Part shown: piece by piece, positions 5,830-64,000 of the stretch
Position numbering within the stretch: position 1 is the stretch's first letter
How the letters are laid out: each line of letters opens with the position of its first letter
IMG/VR virus record: IMGVR_UViG_3300045988_108162
Coordinates: 12,467-76,466 of that record
Direction: 5' to 3' (one strand)
From: a virus
Length of the DNA: 64,000 bases
Position numbers and translations under genes: made by a program
The notes under the pieces: model-generated
Databases searched by the model: none
Told to the model about the DNA's origin: nothing
Seen by the model: the letters and a program-made list of their open reading frames with translations, nothing else

Positions 5830-8088
5830 ATGGGTGTCAAATGTCAGATAGAAAAAAAGGAAAATGAAATAAAACGGGTTAAGGCTCCTAACGGGGAGCC
5901 TTCCGTTCTTTACGAAAGTGCTTTAAAAGTATTAGGAAACAGCGAGCGGGCCCTTCAGGTATGGGCTAAGGCTTACACTCCTGGTTTTTTGTCGTATTAC
6001 GGTCATTGGAATAACCCGGCTCCAGGGGAGATGTTTAACACCGATCCCAATGGCGAACCTCTTTTAGAAGATGTGCTGTCGTATATGAAGCGTCAGACTT
6101 ATTTTGCTGATCCTTTAACGGCTCAGGATGTTAAGGATGTAAGGGATTTCCTTTTGTCTACTCATTATTTTTTCAATGCGTCTTCATTGTCTAATGCTAT
6201 TCTCTTCGATTTTTATGTAGATGGCAGTTTGATACTGAATGAGCAGAAATTAAGGAGATCCGGTTTGTATGATGAAACAGAAATAAGTCGTATTTTATCC
6301 GATCCTTCTGTTTTAAACGAGGTTTCGACTTCCATGAGAAAGTTAATAGATTCTTCTATTAACGAACATGATAGGGAAAAAGATAATTATTTTATGTCTA
6401 TTGACTATCAGTATGGTCCTATTGTTTACAAGGAGGGAGTGTTTAACCAATTTGGTAAAAAAGTACCATATAATCCTTCTGAGCTTTATTATGCTATGCG
6501 TAAAACAGTAGCCGGCATAAAAAACTTTTCTGAATTTTCATCTGCTTTTGAATCGTTGAGAAATTCATATCCTGAACTGGTTGAGAAATTCGTTTCTGAT
6601 AAAGAATTTGCCGAATCTATGTTTGATGAGTTCTCATCTACGAATAAGATTCCGGTAATAAACATAGAAGGGGATGATGTGGTGGAAGGCAAGAGAAGAT
6701 CTTTGTCTAAGCTACAAGATCTTTCTTATTACAATTCCGGCAAAATAGAGTTCCTAAGAGCTCGTATATCAGCTTATTTACATAGGGCTAATGCCGACAC
6801 CGAATCCGATTTAAGAAGCATGATATGGGATATAGAAGAGGCTTGTACGTGGTTTGGCATAGATATAATAGGGACATCGGAAACTTATGATGGCACAGAA
6901 GAATCTTTGAATAAGATAGATAATTTGATGCTGGATCTTGATATTTATGTGGCCAGGCATAATGATGTAAATTATGCTCCAACGCTGGCATCTTCTATAG
7001 ATGATGTTCTTGGTGATAGTACAGACTATTATTTTGGATTATTGCCGGAGTATATGGATAATTTGAATATCGTTTATTCTGAATCCGATATAGACCCAGT
7101 AGAGGCATTTGAGAAACATTCATTGCTTAAGGTAGGAGATAATCTATATCAAAGGATTAGCAAAGATGATCTTAACGAGATGTATCAAATATCAACAGTA
7201 TTAGCCAAGCACAACCTAACTCATTTTTCTACTAAAATATATCCTGAATCTTGTTTTAAGAACGGCGTTTTGGATAAAGAGAAAGTACGGAACGTAGATG
7301 ATAATACGCTCATGGCTTCCATTAAAAAATACGTCAGATCGTTCATGGATTCTCAGAACACAGAGGACATGATAATGACCAGGATGGCGTTTGGGCACCC
7401 TGCGGTACTTGACGTTCCTTACGTGGATGTGGATCGGGAGTATAGTCGATACATGAACAAAAAACAAGATAGCGAAAACCCATTATCCTTATTCGATTTA
7501 TACCAATCTTACCTTGACAACAAACTCCATAAAACAAAATTATATGATAATGCCTATAAGTATCTTGACTTCAAACCTGGTCCATCTTTGGGTCTTATTT
7601 CTGATGATCCTGATATTTTGAAATCAATAGAATTATCTTTATCTGGAAAAGACAGGTTGATGTTGTTTGATTATAGCATGACCAGTACCGACCCTTCTTT
7701 ATCAGAATTGTTTTATTTGGAGAGGTATGACCCTTCGTATGCTGGGAATGATTTTGAACACTATTTTTACACCAGGCACCCGTATTTGTTAAAAGAAAAA
7801 TCGGGTTCTAATATCGTAGAGCAAGATGGTGTTATAACAGCAGAAGGTATTTATGATAATTTTATAAGAGTAGGTAATAAGATATGGTCTAAAGTAAGCG
7901 AGAGTAGTTCCGGCTCTATCTACCAAAATCTGACAGGAACCGAATCGGAGGTGAAATACGATTCTACTCAGAAGGCTAAGACGGTAGAAACTGATTACGC
8001 TCCATACCAAAACAGATCTGGCTTGACGCAAGACATGACCGTAAGCAAGTCTGAATTGGATGATCTTAACAAATTGGAATGCAGGTAA
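5830..8088 (+). CDS. Hypothetical large protein (752 aa), structural-module context
   Basis: A 2.26-kb ORF. ATG at 5830 (MGVKCQIEK) is preferred over the track's TTG at 5809, which lies inside the promoter box. It begins with the 28-bp repeat 5829-5856. Confidence 0.65.
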   Translation: MGVKCQIEKKENEIKRVKAPNGEPSVLYESALKVLGNSERALQVWAKAYTPGFLSYYGHWNNPAPGEMFNTDPNGEPLLEDVLSYMKRQTYFADPLTAQDVKDVRDFLLSTHYFFNASSLSNAILFDFYVDGSLILNEQKLRRSGLYDETEISRILSDPSVLNEVSTSMRKLIDSSINEHDREKDNYFMSIDYQYGPIVYKEGVFNQFGKKVPYNPSELYYAMRKTVAGIKNFSEFSSAFESLRNSYPELVEKFVSDKEFAESMFDEFSSTNKIPVINIEGDDVVEGKRRSLSKLQDLSYYNSGKIEFLRARISAYLHRANADTESDLRSMIWDIEEACTWFGIDIIGTSETYDGTEESLNKIDNLMLDLDIYVARHNDVNYAPTLASSIDDVLGDSTDYYFGLLPEYMDNLNIVYSESDIDPVEAFEKHSLLKVGDNLYQRISKDDLNEMYQISTVLAKHNLTHFSTKIYPESCFKNGVLDKEKVRNVDDNTLMASIKKYVRSFMDSQNTEDMIMTRMAFGHPAVLDVPYVDVDREYSRYMNKKQDSENPLSLFDLYQSYLDNKLHKTKLYDNAYKYLDFKPGPSLGLISDDPDILKSIELSLSGKDRLMLFDYSMTSTDPSLSELFYLERYDPSYAGNDFEHYFYTRHPYLLKEKSGSNIVEQDGVITAEGIYDNFIRVGNKIWSKVSESSSGSIYQNLTGTESEVKYDSTQKAKTVETDYAPYQNRSGLTQDMTVSKSELDDLNKLECR

Positions 8089-16177: not shown

Positions 16178-19100
16178 ATGGTATCAACGTGTATTATTAA
16201 AAGAGATAATAAAAAGAAAGTCGTTTCTGTCTCTACCAGATCAGGGGACAGGTCTATGTTGTTTGATAAAATAGCATCTATTCCCCTTATGGAGAACAGG
16301 GAACGGGCTACTACTGTTTTTAAAACCGTATTTTCCAACAAGTTCTTAAAGGCTTTTGGCGACTGGAGAAAGAGAGTGCCTATCAACAAACAGGCTTATA
16401 ATAAGGTAAAATCCAACATCGATCTTATCCCAGAAGCCTATAGAGAAAGGGTACTGGATAAGGCTTCTAAGATGAGTAATCCTGTTCTTGTGTCAAAATC
16501 AGATGCACCTTATGAAATCCAAGAATCGGGCTTTGGATTTTACAGCCAAGATCTGGGTGATAATATTATGTTGGTAGATGCTATGGTCCCGTCAAGTATT
16601 TCCGTACCGGAAGGACCGGGAATAGACGCAGGGCAGTATCTACAAGATGCTATATCTTCGGACTTCACTCCCGTATCTATGGTACAGGATAAGGGTGTTA
16701 ATTATATGGTTATAAAAGACGGTCTTAAGATATTTAGCCCAGAAGAGCTACCACAGACAGATTCTAATCCTGTGGGTGTAACGTATCAGACCGGAGAGCC
16801 TCGTTTGTTTTTCATGAACGATCGTAGTCAATTATTTGAAGATTACGGAGAAGCTCTTCGCTCTGGCGGAAATGATATTAGAATAGGATTCTTATCAGGC
16901 ACCGTTCAAGAATCTACCGTGGATGGCGTGGCAGACATTACTTACAAGGCTGGAAAGTATGTTCTTAATAATCCCAAATCTTTTATACCGGTCATGACCG
17001 CTTCTGCTTCTACTTCTTTATCAACAAAAGGTGGTATAATTAACTACCTTATAAAGAAAGGTCTTTTGTCAGGATCTAAGATATTCGATCCGGAAACAAG
17101 AAGCTATTATCTTACAGGAGAAGGTCATACAGGACAAATTAGACTTTTCAATTCAGCCTTATCATACACCGAGCTCCGTAATCATTTTGGTTCCGATGTT
17201 TCCATGAACGACCAAGGTATGATAACCATAAGCTCGTTGGATAATAGTAATGTAACTATGAGGCTCGCCACCGGAGGAACGGAAAGGGTTAGCAAAGAGC
17301 AGATAAAGAACGATCTTAAGTCAGGAAGATACAATGAATTGGACGCCAAGTACGATCATTTTGATGCGCTTGTAGTTTCATTCATATTAGAAGACAACGA
17401 TCTTTATGCTGATACTAAAGCTAAGATCGTATCAGATTATAGCAGGCAGGAACGTGATCAACGAAATTCTATTGTCGAGATACTGAAAACTCTTGGCGTT
17501 AGTGTCATAGGTATGACCGATTATATAGAGAAGTACCAAACCAAATACGGGCACGAACCTTCTGCTAAGGCATTGGCGGATATTGCCAATAATGTAATAG
17601 CAGTTGGTGAAGATGCTACTTTATCTGATTTAGTAGAAGAAACAGCCCACTTTCTTGTAGAGGCATACAGAGATCAGAATGCTGTTGAGGCTGTTCTGCA
17701 AGATGTAGAAGGTACGGAAGAGTGGAACCAGTATGCAGGTCAGTATTATAATACATACGGTAAAGCGTATGAAGGAGCTGAGCTTGATAATGCTGTTAGG
17801 AGAGAAATTCTTGGAAAGATCCTCGCCAGGGAGATGCAGGCCGGCACAGCACAGGCGCCGGTAGAGCCCACCTCCTTCCTGGGGCGCGTCCGGCAGCTTT
17901 TCTCTGGAATCGTAAGCTGGCTTAAATCAGCTTTATCAACCCAAAGACAAGATTTGAATAACGTTATTAAAAACATTCGTGATCTTGCCATTACTGACAT
18001 AGATAAAGGATTTGACACCTCTCTGTTAAAGGATAATGACTTTACATTATACTCCCTTTCTTCTATGAACAAGAACAAGTTTCTTGAGTCTAAGATCAGA
18101 TCACTAAGAAAAACATTAAGAGACTTACGTCAGATAAGCTCTGATAGGGCTGTAACTACGTCTATGACCCTTGCGCAGCTTAAGACCATAGAAGATAAGA
18201 TAAATAAGGTAGAGACCGAAATAGACAAGAATGAGATGGCGGCTGCCATGAACAGCATGATCTCCACAGCCGAAGCTCAGGTCAGATACTTAAGCAATGT
18301 GGTGAACACCATCCTTCATGGTGATACCAAAGACGGCAAGCTTCACTTCAATACCAATGATCGAAAGAACGTAGATATTATCAACAATCAGGTTCTTCCG
18401 ATCATGAACGATCTTCGAGGATATATCCGTAACAGAAGTACCGAATTTGATGAACGTGAAAAGCAGGATTATACAAATAGGATCAACACCGTCATTGCCG
18501 ACATCAATGGTATTCAGTCTGATATTAAATCAGTACAAGACCTTGATGAAAGTACGTTGCTTGATAAGTTAATGAACGAACTTCATGTGCCGGCAGATAA
18601 GGTAAAGAGAGTAAAAGAATTTTTCGACAAGGTTCAACACGATGTTTCTTGGATAAGTAGGTGGTTTGGTATATTAGAGCATTCTTCCAGTCCGTTCAAT
18701 AACGCTCTTGGAGCTATGATTGCCAAAGACAATTACAATGCGATGGTGAATGCCCAGCCCGCCATATCCGATTTCCTGGCATATGCGAAAAAGCATGGTT
18801 TTAACAAATCTGAATTTGAAAAACTGCTTCAGAAAGTAGACGGAAAAACTTCTAATTACCTTCGTAGTGCTCTTGATATGGCTAAATACGATCGTAATAA
18901 GAAGCTGGCGCAGATGCGAGCGTTTGCGACTGCCATGAACATAGAGATATCAGAAGAAGAAATTGGTGATGTGGTTGACAATAACCGTAATTACGTATTT
19001 AAAAGAGAAGTAGTTGACAAGGATGGAAATACGGTTACTGAAAACGCTAAATTCAAACCATCGTCTGATAGGGTTAATACCGATATTTTTACCATCGAGC

Positions 19101-61174: not shown

Positions 61175-61352
61175 AATCTTTCGTTTTATTATCTACAAAC
61201 TTATCTATATCGTCTCTTATTCTTTTTAGCACTCCGGCTATAATTGTCGGCATTTCTCCTCCGGTACGGTTCAGAGTTTCTATCACCCCGTCAATCTTAC
61301 CCATTTGACGCCATAAGAAATTGGCGTCTTTCGCATTAAATTCCCCCATCAT
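61155..61352 (-). CDS. Hypothetical protein
   Basis: 65-aa ORF. Confidence 0.4.
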   Translation of the reverse strand: MMGEFNAKDANFLWRQMGKIDGVIETLNRTGGEMPTIIAGVLKRIRDDIDKFVDNKTKDYENIQE

Positions 61353-61584
61353 GTCTTATTTTACAGTAAACAACTTGCTTTTTTAAGCACCAGTCTTGCG
61401 ATTCTGAGAGTGAACACCGTCCTGTGTTGTTAAAAAATATACAATCTTTGCAGAACATAACAGGCTCTTCGTCGTCACTAACTACTTTGACCTCATACTC
61501 TATGCCATACAATTTTAATCTAAATACATCCCCTGCTTCTTTAGAAGACAAATCCATGTTCGGACCGAATGTTATTACTTCCAT
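61336..61584 (-). CDS. Hypothetical Cys-containing protein
   Basis: 82-aa ORF. Confidence 0.45.
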   Translation of the reverse strand: MEVITFGPNMDLSSKEAGDVFRLKLYGIEYEVKVVSDDEEPVMFCKDCIFFNNTGRCSLSESQDWCLKKQVVYCKIRHDGGI

Positions 61585-61604: not shown

Positions 61605-61698
61605 GTGAGATGCCCAGAATCGAACCAGGACCGGCACATACGCACCGGCACGCCGCGTCATCCCTCTATGATACAGAAATAGGCATGTCTATCCTCAC
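61605..61698 (-). tRNA. tRNA-like element A (about 93 nt, type-II-like length); canonical T arm but a non-canonical acceptor stem
   Basis: In minus-strand sense the T arm reads CCUGG-UUCGAUU-CUGGG, followed by CAUCUCAC. The 5' partner GUGAG(G)AU pairs with it only if one G bulges. It sits in a 170-nt gap between minus-strand genes. Confidence 0.4.
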
Positions 61699-62852: not shown

Positions 62853-62925
62853 GTGAGATCGCCGGAATCGAACCAGCCTACCGCACCATGAATCCCATAA
62901 AGCAAATGCTCCGATCTTCGCAGAC
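62853..62925 (-). tRNA. tRNA-like element B; same conserved 3' module as A (GGUUCGAUUCCGGC-GAUCUCAC), 5' half poorly defined
   Basis: T arm GCUGG-UUCGAUU-CCGGC pairs with one G-U wobble. The best 5' acceptor candidate, GAAGAUC, pairs at only 5 of 7 positions. It sits in a 225-nt intergenic gap. Confidence 0.3.
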
Positions 62926-63395: not shown

Positions 63396-63674
63396 TTAGC
63401 CCAAGGCGCCGCCTACTCCCCCCTCTATGGCAGCCTGTTCGTACCTACAAAGCCAGTCTCCATCTACACAACTATCACTACGCGATAATAAACATTTATC
63501 CTTATAACAATCATAAAAAATACACCTATCACAACTGTAATCCTTAACGTCTACACAGCTAACTACCTTAGCATATACTATACCATCACTGCCTTCTATT
63601 CCTTTCACCCCAAAAATAGAACCTTCTACCTCCTTACTCAAATCTAAGTCAGGCGCAAAATCATATACGTTCAT
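63396..63674 (-). CDS. Hypothetical Cys-rich protein
   Basis: 92 aa. It is the first gene of the minus-strand module and has a GC-rich 3' end. Confidence 0.5.
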   Translation of the reverse strand: MNVYDFAPDLDLSKEVEGSIFGVKGIEGSDGIVYAKVVSCVDVKDYSCDRCIFYDCYKDKCLLSRSDSCVDGDWLCRYEQAAIEGGVGGALG

Positions 63675-63718
63675 GTTGTTTATATTTTAATTGTTAAACA
63701 TTTCACTTACTACCAGCC

Positions 63719-64000
63719 TATGGAATACTGTTTTAAAACGCTATCATACTTTATTTTGTTGGAAAACCTACAGAATACTGTCTTAAAACGCTGTAAGTCT
63801 TATTTAAAACGCTGTAAGTCTTAATTTTGTTGGAAAACCTACAGAATACTGTCTTAAAACGCTGTAAGTCTTAATTAAAACGCTGTAAGTCTTAATTTTG
63901 TTGGAAGACCTACAGAATACTGTTTTAAAACGCTGTAAGTCTTAATTAAAACGCTGTAAGTCTTAATTAAAACGCTGTAAGTCTTAATTTTGTTGGAAGA
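63719..64000. repeat. Nested tandem repeat array (truncated by the window end): units of about 71-92 bp made of a head, 2-3 copies of a 21-bp sub-repeat, and a tail
   Basis: The head is tacagaatactgtyttaaaacgctgtaagtcttaatt. The 21-bp sub-repeat is aaaacgctgtaagtcttaatt. The tail is ttgttggaaracc. There are at least 4 units, plus a degenerate first unit at 63719-63768. Each unit carries a TAATTTTG box. Confidence 0.9.

Follow-up and report, generated by a model that had tools for sequence, protein, structure and literature searches.

A hypervariable two-level tandem repeat array near the predicted genome end of CrAssE-Sib-like epsilon crAss-like phages

Organization of the array in the window

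The DNA analysed here (the window) is a stretch of 64,000 nucleotides from the IMG/VR virus record IMGVR_UViG_3300045988_108162. Its right-hand end, positions 63720-64000, is occupied by a two-level non-coding tandem repeat, in which a degenerate unit of 50 bp is followed by two units of 71 bp and one of at least 89 bp. The array is built as follows:

63720..63769: unit 1, degenerate, 50 bp, ATGGAATACTGTTTTAAAACGCTATCATACTTTATTTTGTTGGAAAACCT; both conserved blocks of the unit are kept and the box reads TTATTTTG
63770..63840: unit 2, 71 bp; head ACAGAATACTGT, two 21-mers, tail TTGTTGGAAAACCT
63841..63911: unit 3, 71 bp; head, two exact 21-mers, tail TTGTTGGAAGACCT
63912..64000: unit 4, 89 bp visible; head and three exact 21-mers, followed by TTGTTGGAAGA up to the source contig's end, which truncates the unit
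63785..63989: span of seven 21-bp sub-repeats AAAACGCTGTAAGTCTTAATT; units 2, 3 and 4 each hold one tandem run, of 2, 2 and 3 copies respectively

The nested tandem arrangement proposed in the initial annotation is borne out by Tandem Repeats Finder, which reports a period of 71 bp in 3.3 copies (63733-63968, 95% matches) and a nested period of 21 bp at 63783-63823, 63854-63897 and 63925-63989, each with 100% matches. The 21-mer AAAACGCTGTAAGTCTTAATT has seven matches at no more than one mismatch, all of them within 63785-63989, versus none in 100 shuffled sequences. The sub-repeat counts of 2, 2 and 3 had been read correctly; the count of at least four units plus a degenerate first one has to be lowered to three nested units and one degenerate unit, four in total.

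The copies are not all identical. The first 21-mer of unit 2 reads CTTATTT where the others read CTTAATT, and there are further differences of GTCTTAAAAC versus GTTTTAAAAC and of GGAAAACCT versus GGAAGACCT. The junctions between 21-mer copies generate the quasi-palindrome GTCTTAATTAAAAC, and a variant junction in unit 2, CTTATTTAAAACG, was found in this assembly only. The units are contiguous, with no unique spacers between the repeats, and a coding sequence is rejected by the presence of 5-8 stops in each of the six frames.

Conservation and variability of the array in related phages

Over its last 2 kb, the window is 95% identical to the human gut phage CrAssE-Sib (deposited as csAssE-Sib, OR575929, 151,256 bp); judged by sequence, the window phage is thus a CrAssE-Sib-like epsilon crAss-like phage. 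In CrAssE-Sib the array lies at approximately 150,465-150,615, within a long run of minus-strand genes, and its region is among the largest non-coding regions of the genome. The GC (guanine plus cytosine) content of the array is 32%, versus about 38% for the genome.

The 21-mer was found in 49 IMG/VR loci and a conserved 19-mer of the flank in more than 119. A total of 78 loci span the interval from the first open reading frame (ORF) on the left of the array to a GC-rich element on its right, and these contain 61 distinct arrays of 114-552 bp; none lacks the array. The number of units per genome ranges from 1 to about 10. The generic unit measures 50-52 bp and reads ACAnnATrCTGTTTTAAArCnnTG(6 variable)T(T/G)AATTTTGnnGGnAgAnnnT. 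It holds two conserved blocks at a fixed spacing, ATrCTGTTTTAAArC and T(T/G)AATTTTGnnGGnAgA, which are separated by about 12 variable bases. Three diverged unit types, A, B and C, recur in this order in many genomes. Their spacers differ while both blocks are kept, as seen in the information profile, which argues for constraint on each copy. The unit that adjoins the GC-rich element is always complete, with a fixed junction GGAAGAGAGTGCCC, whereas the unit on the gene side is degenerate, and this polarity points to a function tied to the right-hand side. The degenerate unit of the window (position 63720) scores 34.8 under the position weight matrix (PWM) of the unit; it recurs unchanged in the relative loci L053 and L152, and with two changes in L028, L051, L054 and L150.

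Nested part-unit repeats are common, in registers that differ between lineages (21, 22, 28, 31 and 39 bp). Sub-repeats of 21 bp, TTGAATTTTGTTGGnAGnGAG, are present in 2-7 copies in at least nine loci, a period of 22 bp in three, and periods of 31 and 39 bp in one locus each; at least 12 relatives carry runs of 2-7 copies at a period of 21-22 bp. In three of four pairs of loci with flanks at least 99% identical, the array lengths differ by 28-51 bp, the exact copy numbers being soft because short-read assemblies can miscount repeats. With its head-to-tail copies and a copy number that varies between near-identical genomes, the array is a minisatellite. The earlier reading of the unequal sub-repeat counts as a signature of slippage or unequal crossover agrees with this behaviour, and the proposed comparison of array length across isolates, made here between assemblies, returned the 61 versions described above, which differ even between near-identical flanks.

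Outside the array, the unit recurs neither in the window nor elsewhere in the 151-kb genome, so that dispersed promoter or operator copies of it are rejected. A search of 185,579 species genomes returned chance singletons and one mis-binned phage contig only. Plasmids showed no similarity to the unit, and among other phages it was found in CrAssE-Sib only. More distant epsilon lineages were sought through TerL in GenBank phages and through the NrnA-like protein in IMG/VR, and these searches yielded only phages of the same genus (at least 93% identity) or unrelated ones. No description of the array was found: neither the CrAssE-Sib paper nor Yutin et al. 2021 yielded one, and the same was true of full-text searches.

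As a side observation, the nearest cultured relatives of the CrAssE-Sib TerL (L055:14406-17219) are the Cellulophaga phages phi4:1 and phi17:2 (145 kb; about 33% identity over 58% of the protein), and no other crAss-like record was found in a TerL search of GenBank phages at 1e-20.

Source contig and assembly of the array

Read as its reverse complement, the window corresponds to the first 64 kb of the ENA scaffold MEHT18-1_SAMN06165019_METAG-scaffold_58 (76,438 bp; locus L152). Over 4 kb, scaffold and window are 100% identical; the scaffold has the same array and terminates at the identical base, ...TTGTTGGAAGA. Because the terminus of the window is the end of the scaffold, the array is cut by the assembly and not merely by the window. 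In all relatives the array ends ...TTGGAAGAGAGTGCCC, so the final bases of the window, beyond which the initial annotation has the array continue, could equally be the true array end.

An assembly artefact at a contig end had been named as the finding that would overturn the array. The array is no pure artefact, as it was found in more than 100 independent assemblies; the exact nesting of the window was seen in one only. Taken as a class, the array is genuine: its position is conserved, it is subject to some constraint and its copy number is hypervariable. The nesting seen in the window rests on a single contig end.

It is possible, if doubtful, that this layout, with its 21-mer runs of 2, 2 and 3, is a short-read artefact of that contig end and that the true array consists of plain 51-bp units. 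Among 159 loci, the 21-mer register of the window occurs in the source contig only, at its extreme end, and its junction pattern had no match in the JGI metagenomes. A Logan contig (L150) whose flank is 99.92% identical over 4 kb carries only two plain units. The 92-amino-acid (aa) protein encoded next to the array has an identical copy on 23 contigs, including scaffold_58; among the matches listed, 8 of 10 contigs with the identical protein stop inside the array, and about 20 of the 49 IMG/VR loci with the 21-mer likewise do so. In addition, three exact 21-mers amount to 63 bp, which is longer than common k-mer sizes. Against an artefact, the non-identical copies listed above (CTTATTT/CTTAATT and the two further pairs) give unique paths that need read support, and similar nesting was found deep inside many other contigs.

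Near-full-length IMG/VR contigs such as 105159, 129625, 133813 and 102995 (L005/L094, L026/L102, L039/L164 and L018/L216) start and finish within tandem arrays. End overlaps that are built of array units could pass for direct terminal repeats in completeness calls.

Genomic surroundings of the array

The features that border the array in the window and, on its right-hand side, in relatives are the following:

63675..63719, minus strand: spacer or 5' leader from the array to the start codon of the first ORF, conserved within each lineage
63396..63674, minus strand: first ORF left of the array, a 92-aa Cys-rich ORFan with no Pfam or PHROG family
L028:740-926: conserved GC-rich element of about 190 bp, directly right of the array in relatives, which starts with a polypyrimidine (plus strand)/polypurine (minus strand) mirror-repeat tract (CCCTCT)n
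L028:927-1094, minus strand: conserved 55-aa ORF, separated from the array by about 190 bp; two hydrophobic helices, basic tail (MWWFLLVADLYFLSVGIRSMLEYGPDQYNIVMVFCFSFLALIIGLNIYLDRRSRR)
L028:1268-1286 and 1342-1360 (also L001:7177-7195 and 7251-7269): exact 19-bp direct repeat AGTTTCGTTTTAGACCAAT in two copies spaced by 74 bp
L162:7037-7415 (CrAssE-Sib 2066-2176; outside the window): second hypervariable array, with a unit of 27-33 bp in 2-12.5 copies, for example TGTTTATGTGATGGGAGAGAGGGTAAAAGA (gene sense)

On the left, the 92-aa ORFan has an 82-aa paralogue at 61336-61584 on the minus strand, three genes downstream (36% identity, E = 3e-07), which is also an ORFan. The C-terminus of the 92-aa protein is variable between strains. 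About 20 kb of small ORFans extend to the left of the array and the replication genes lie beyond them, more than 20 kb distant in CrAssE-Sib. Ten ORFs (nine in the window by the array and the 55-aa ORF of the relatives) gave no Pfam match, and two of them match PHROGs of unknown function only. The array had been placed upstream of the first gene of the replication module, which does not hold with ORFans as its nearest genes and the replication genes so far away.

In the GC-rich spacers between the small ORFans, motifs resembling the T-arm of transfer RNA (tRNA), GGTTCGATTCC and GGTTCGATTCT, are present at 62864-62874 and 61616-61626 on the minus strand, and relatives have a similar motif to the right of the genome end; neither ARAGORN nor Rfam makes a call for any of these. 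The motifs may be degenerate tRNA-like processing signals.

On the right, the order in relatives is the GC-rich tract, the 55-aa ORF, AT-rich short-repeat DNA, the two 19-bp direct repeats and the end of the record. The (CCCTCT)n tract varies in length and is expanded in L049, L088, L091 and L137. The consensus RNA fold of the GC-rich element is more stable for the minus strand (-39 kcal/mol) than for the plus strand (-14 kcal/mol). In the minus-strand fold, 98.9% of cells pair versus 98.8% in shuffles, with one compensatory pair, and covariation is absent. The 55-aa ORF is intact in 23 genomes, its variable sites are distributed over the three codon positions as 13, 4 and 25, and it belongs to no Pfam or PHROG family; on these sequence features it is a real gene, predicted to encode a two-helix membrane protein. 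A plus-strand transcript arising in the array would run antisense to this gene. The 55-aa ORF and about 17 kb of minus-strand genes across the genome end lie beyond the array, which therefore does not head the minus-strand module as previously stated.

Promoter-like boxes and a putative control module facing the genome end

Three units of the window contain a box similar to the -7 element of Bacteroidota promoters:

63822..63829, plus strand: -7-like box TAATTTTG of unit 2, followed by TTGGAAAA; promoter PWM score 8.8, 99.97th genome percentile; flanks alone, 97th
63893..63900, plus strand: -7-like box TAATTTTG of unit 3; promoter PWM score 7.9, 99.96th percentile
63985..63992, plus strand: -7-like box TAATTTTG of unit 4, with its downstream context lost at the contig end

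The box had been attributed to every unit. This holds for units 2-4, whereas TTATTTTG of unit 1 departs from TAnnTTTG.

The promoter PWM was trained on 16 sense-strand boxes from the gaps upstream of plus-strand (late) genes. In these gaps of CrAssE-Sib, sense-strand TAnnTTTG is enriched about 8-fold (19 of 32 gaps), and the consensus of the phage's own boxes is TAT(C/A)TTTGT(G/T)GAAAAA, often located 14-23 nt before the ATG. The pattern points clearly to the use of host-type promoters by the phage. Under this matrix the array boxes reach the 99.8-99.97th genome percentile, and the flanks alone the 92-97th. The array block TAATTTTGTTGGAAAA also resembles the extension of the phage promoters, TTTGT(G/T)GAAAAA. 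The ORFan module at 132-150 kb has the box in 1 of 10 gaps, which suggests that it is read by a different polymerase. Such a scarcity of boxes fits the situation in phage phi14:2, whose early genes are reported to be read by another polymerase and whose long intergenic regions give rise to abundant non-coding RNAs (10.1101/2020.03.07.982082).

The explanation that we tentatively favour is that the array is a reiterated promoter-like or protein-binding control module that faces the genome end. The array itself is a variable-number tandem repeat of a 50-52-bp non-coding module specific to CrAssE-Sib-like epsilon crAss-like phages. The second block is read as a candidate promoter core for the host RNA polymerase, or a similar protein-recognition site, because it combines a Bacteroidota -7 box with a downstream T(T/G)GAAAA that is like the start region of the late promoters. 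Read in this way, the modules would fire rightward on the plus strand, into the GC-rich element and antisense to the gene of the membrane protein. Rightward firing would oppose the leftward transcription that enters the ORFan module, probably an early one, from the genome end, with a presumed regulatory effect. One complete module beside the GC-rich element is always retained. Further whole modules, of 51 bp, and part-modules, which mostly measure 21-22 bp or about two helical turns, are gained and lost by slippage or unequal recombination. This instability may be favoured by the position of the array, 0.64 kb from the physical DNA end.

A number of observations weigh against a promoter function. 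The window contains 66 copies of TAnnTTTG where 70.9 are expected, so the motif shows no enrichment, and a chance match in one 51-bp unit has a likelihood of about 5%. The exact box is present in 72 of 136 units of the clade, and in 48 of the 61 arrays the box that adjoins the GC-rich element is GAATTTTG. The invariant core of the unit is not TA..TTTG but AATTTTG, which takes in the two positions left free in the consensus, and the array boxes score below all 16 training promoters. The boxes lie on the plus strand and point away from the adjoining minus-strand genes; no conserved plus-strand ORF is found to their right, where all of the approximately 17 kb is encoded on the opposite strand; a promoter at this place would have no protein gene to drive. 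There is no -33 TTTG 18-21 nt upstream within the array, but this weighs little since the 16 candidate phage promoters are also devoid of it. The 21-22-bp phasing of the sub-repeats is equally typical of iterons. Finally, a -7 box is missing from the second hypervariable array, at a distance of 2.7 kb, so that instability here need not depend on a promoter. Of the functional readings considered, we rank the control module first, followed by an iteron-like origin, a neutral minisatellite and a terminus-associated site.

Alternative functions of the array

The next reading is that the array is an iteron-type replication origin, or part of one, in which the 21-22-bp part-modules and the 51-bp modules bind a phage initiator or a helicase loader, and the adjoining polypurine/polypyrimidine tract and AT-rich DNA would aid unwinding or priming. 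We consider this rather unlikely. The epsilon crAss-like phage CrAssE-Sib has no DNA polymerase (PMC11054128), and such a phage must recruit the host replisome. The array is a single locus in the genome, it is poorer in GC than the genome as a whole, and it lies within one of the largest non-coding regions. Direct repeats in non-coding DNA that heads early genes are a classic layout of a phage origin. Iterons comprise three or more direct repeats of 17-22 bp in helical phase, with which the 21-bp runs of 2-3 copies in the window agree, and the periods of 21 bp (at least nine loci), 22 bp (three) and 31 bp (one) are near whole helical turns, as in tandem iterons. Opposed to this, GC skew, which had been suggested as a check, was negative, and so was a search for DnaA boxes. 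The cumulative GC skew reaches a minimum at 17,716 and a maximum at 110,658, both of them strand switches, and does not turn at 150.5 kb; the skew here follows gene orientation, which makes this test weak. No DnaA box TTATCCACA at up to one mismatch is present in L028 500-1500 (0.9-kb region), and no iterons were found at the 17.4-kb divergence point. No recognisable initiator adjoins the array, although an unrecognised one might exist among the ORFans, and the replication genes are remote. The DNA that directly adjoins the array is rich in GC and not in AT. Only one or two modules are present in some apparently complete genomes, few for the cooperative binding of an initiator, and a copy number that varies between near-identical strains is unusual for origin iterons.

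A more specific version of the origin reading is a long shot. The array and the polypurine/polypyrimidine tract together would form the origin of this polymerase-less crAss-like phage, primed by the hybrid of a G-rich RNA that leftward transcription from the genome end would yield. By analogy with the ColE1 and mitochondrial origins, a stable hybrid at the tract would be extended by the host polymerase; the 21- and 51-bp repeats would serve as landing sites of the helicase loader, and the rightward boxes would set the firing frequency. If this were true, the changes in copy number would represent a fast-evolving replication control.

It is unlikely, more so than for an iteron-type origin in general, that the array is a largely functionless minisatellite, in which at most one module matters and further copies and sub-repeats are neutral products of slippage. 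Arrays of 1 to about 10 units all circulate, identical or near-identical flanks hold arrays of different length, and the nesting registers vary by lineage (21, 22, 28, 31 and 39 bp), all of which favours neutral turnover. By contrast, the diverged A-B-C order is maintained across numerous genomes, each paralogue keeps the blocks, most sub-repeat periods are near whole helical turns, and the array is present in every assembly that spans the locus.

The proximity of the genome end raises the question of a terminus or packaging repeat, one of the initial proposals. The authors of the CrAssE-Sib record chose its start with PhageTerm (p = 1.5e-22; PMC11054128). The array lies about 0.64 kb left of this end, and the distance between the end of the array and the end point is 627-643 bp in 23 genomes. 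The second hypervariable array is found just past the terminator of the NrnA-like gene, about 2.1 kb beyond the predicted genome end and 2.7 kb from the 51-bp array. Of 43 truncated loci, 20 break at the second array and about 19 at the 51-bp array. Some near-complete contigs appear to run from array to array the long way, skipping the 2.8-kb segment that bears the end.

A terminus-associated reiteration would be a site for the terminase, for an end-binding protein or for an ejection-related protein, or else a mere near-end repeat. The nearby PhageTerm-set start, the fixed distance to it, the second array past the end and the contig breaks at both arrays all favour such a role; even so, we regard it as quite improbable. 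The proximity to the genome end holds, but a distance of 0.64 kb is far from the cut relative to known pac and cos sites, and in CrAssE-Sib the terS gene is located at 20.1 kb, some 20 kb away from the genome start. Better candidates for the terminase are the two 19-bp repeats AGTTTCGTTTTAGACCAAT, which stand about 25-115 bp from the end set by PhageTerm and plausibly represent a terminase or end-recognition site. The end itself comes from one PhageTerm call in one related genome, with the end type unreported.

Other identities were rejected. A known RNA family is contradicted by the lack of any Rfam or tRNA match in the array, its flanks or its relatives. A structured array RNA is not supported either: the fold of the minus strand of the window has z = -5.35 because of its private junction palindromes, and 12 canonical arrays have mean z values of -0.8 (plus strand) and -0.9 (minus strand). 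A clustered regularly interspaced short palindromic repeat (CRISPR) array, or a mimic of its repeats, is incompatible with contiguous units that have no Rfam match and are absent from the species genomes bar the mis-binned contig. In a partition centromere, the palindrome GTTTTAAAAC would be expected to persist; it is broken in GC(A/T)-type units, and no Par-like family was found among the neighbours.

Significance and comparison with known systems

Epsilon crAss-like phages are common in the human gut, uncultured and devoid of DNA polymerase. The array marks their main non-coding control region near the predicted DNA end, and this is the obvious place to seek the origin, promoters and packaging signals. 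Short-read assemblies break at both arrays, and contigs bounded inside an array may mimic terminal repeats. The differences in copy number between near-identical genomes could serve for strain tracking between people or over time.

A comparison with iterons (R6K gamma ori, 7 x 22 bp; pPS10, 4 x 22 bp; lambda ori, 4) reveals head-to-tail repeats of about 21-22 bp in helical phase, at a single non-coding locus per genome. The phage array differs in that no initiator gene was found beside it, nor any DnaA boxes, unwinding element rich in AT or skew signal. Its basic unit is a bipartite module of 51 bp, its copy number is strain-variable, and it has no sequence similarity to plasmids. The sopC centromere of the F plasmid (12 x 43 bp, one of which suffices) is likewise a tandem array whose units measure about 40-50 bp and each contain a short palindrome (GTTTTAAAAC in the phage), and one unit is apparently the minimum here too; however, no ParA/ParB-like genes adjoin the phage array and the palindrome is not in all unit types.

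The 'a' sequence of herpesviruses, with its DR2 and DR4 arrays by pac1 and pac2, also contains strain-variable arrays a few hundred bp from the end, and both viruses belong to the Duplodnaviria. There is no relationship in sequence or genes, and the phage array is positioned 0.64 kb from a predicted end, outside any shown terminal repeat. Phage phi14:2 is crAss-like too, and its large non-coding regions yield abundant RNAs from the earliest time point sampled; it has no comparable tandem array. In phage T7, the promoters A1-A3 at the left end and phiOR, which faces the right end, are promoter-like elements within 1 kb of the DNA end, as are the boxes described here. The T7 promoters are neither exact tandem repeats nor variable in copy number, and promoter activity is putative in the phage array. 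Nevertheless, phiOR of T7 is a precedent for a promoter that faces the genome end and not a gene.

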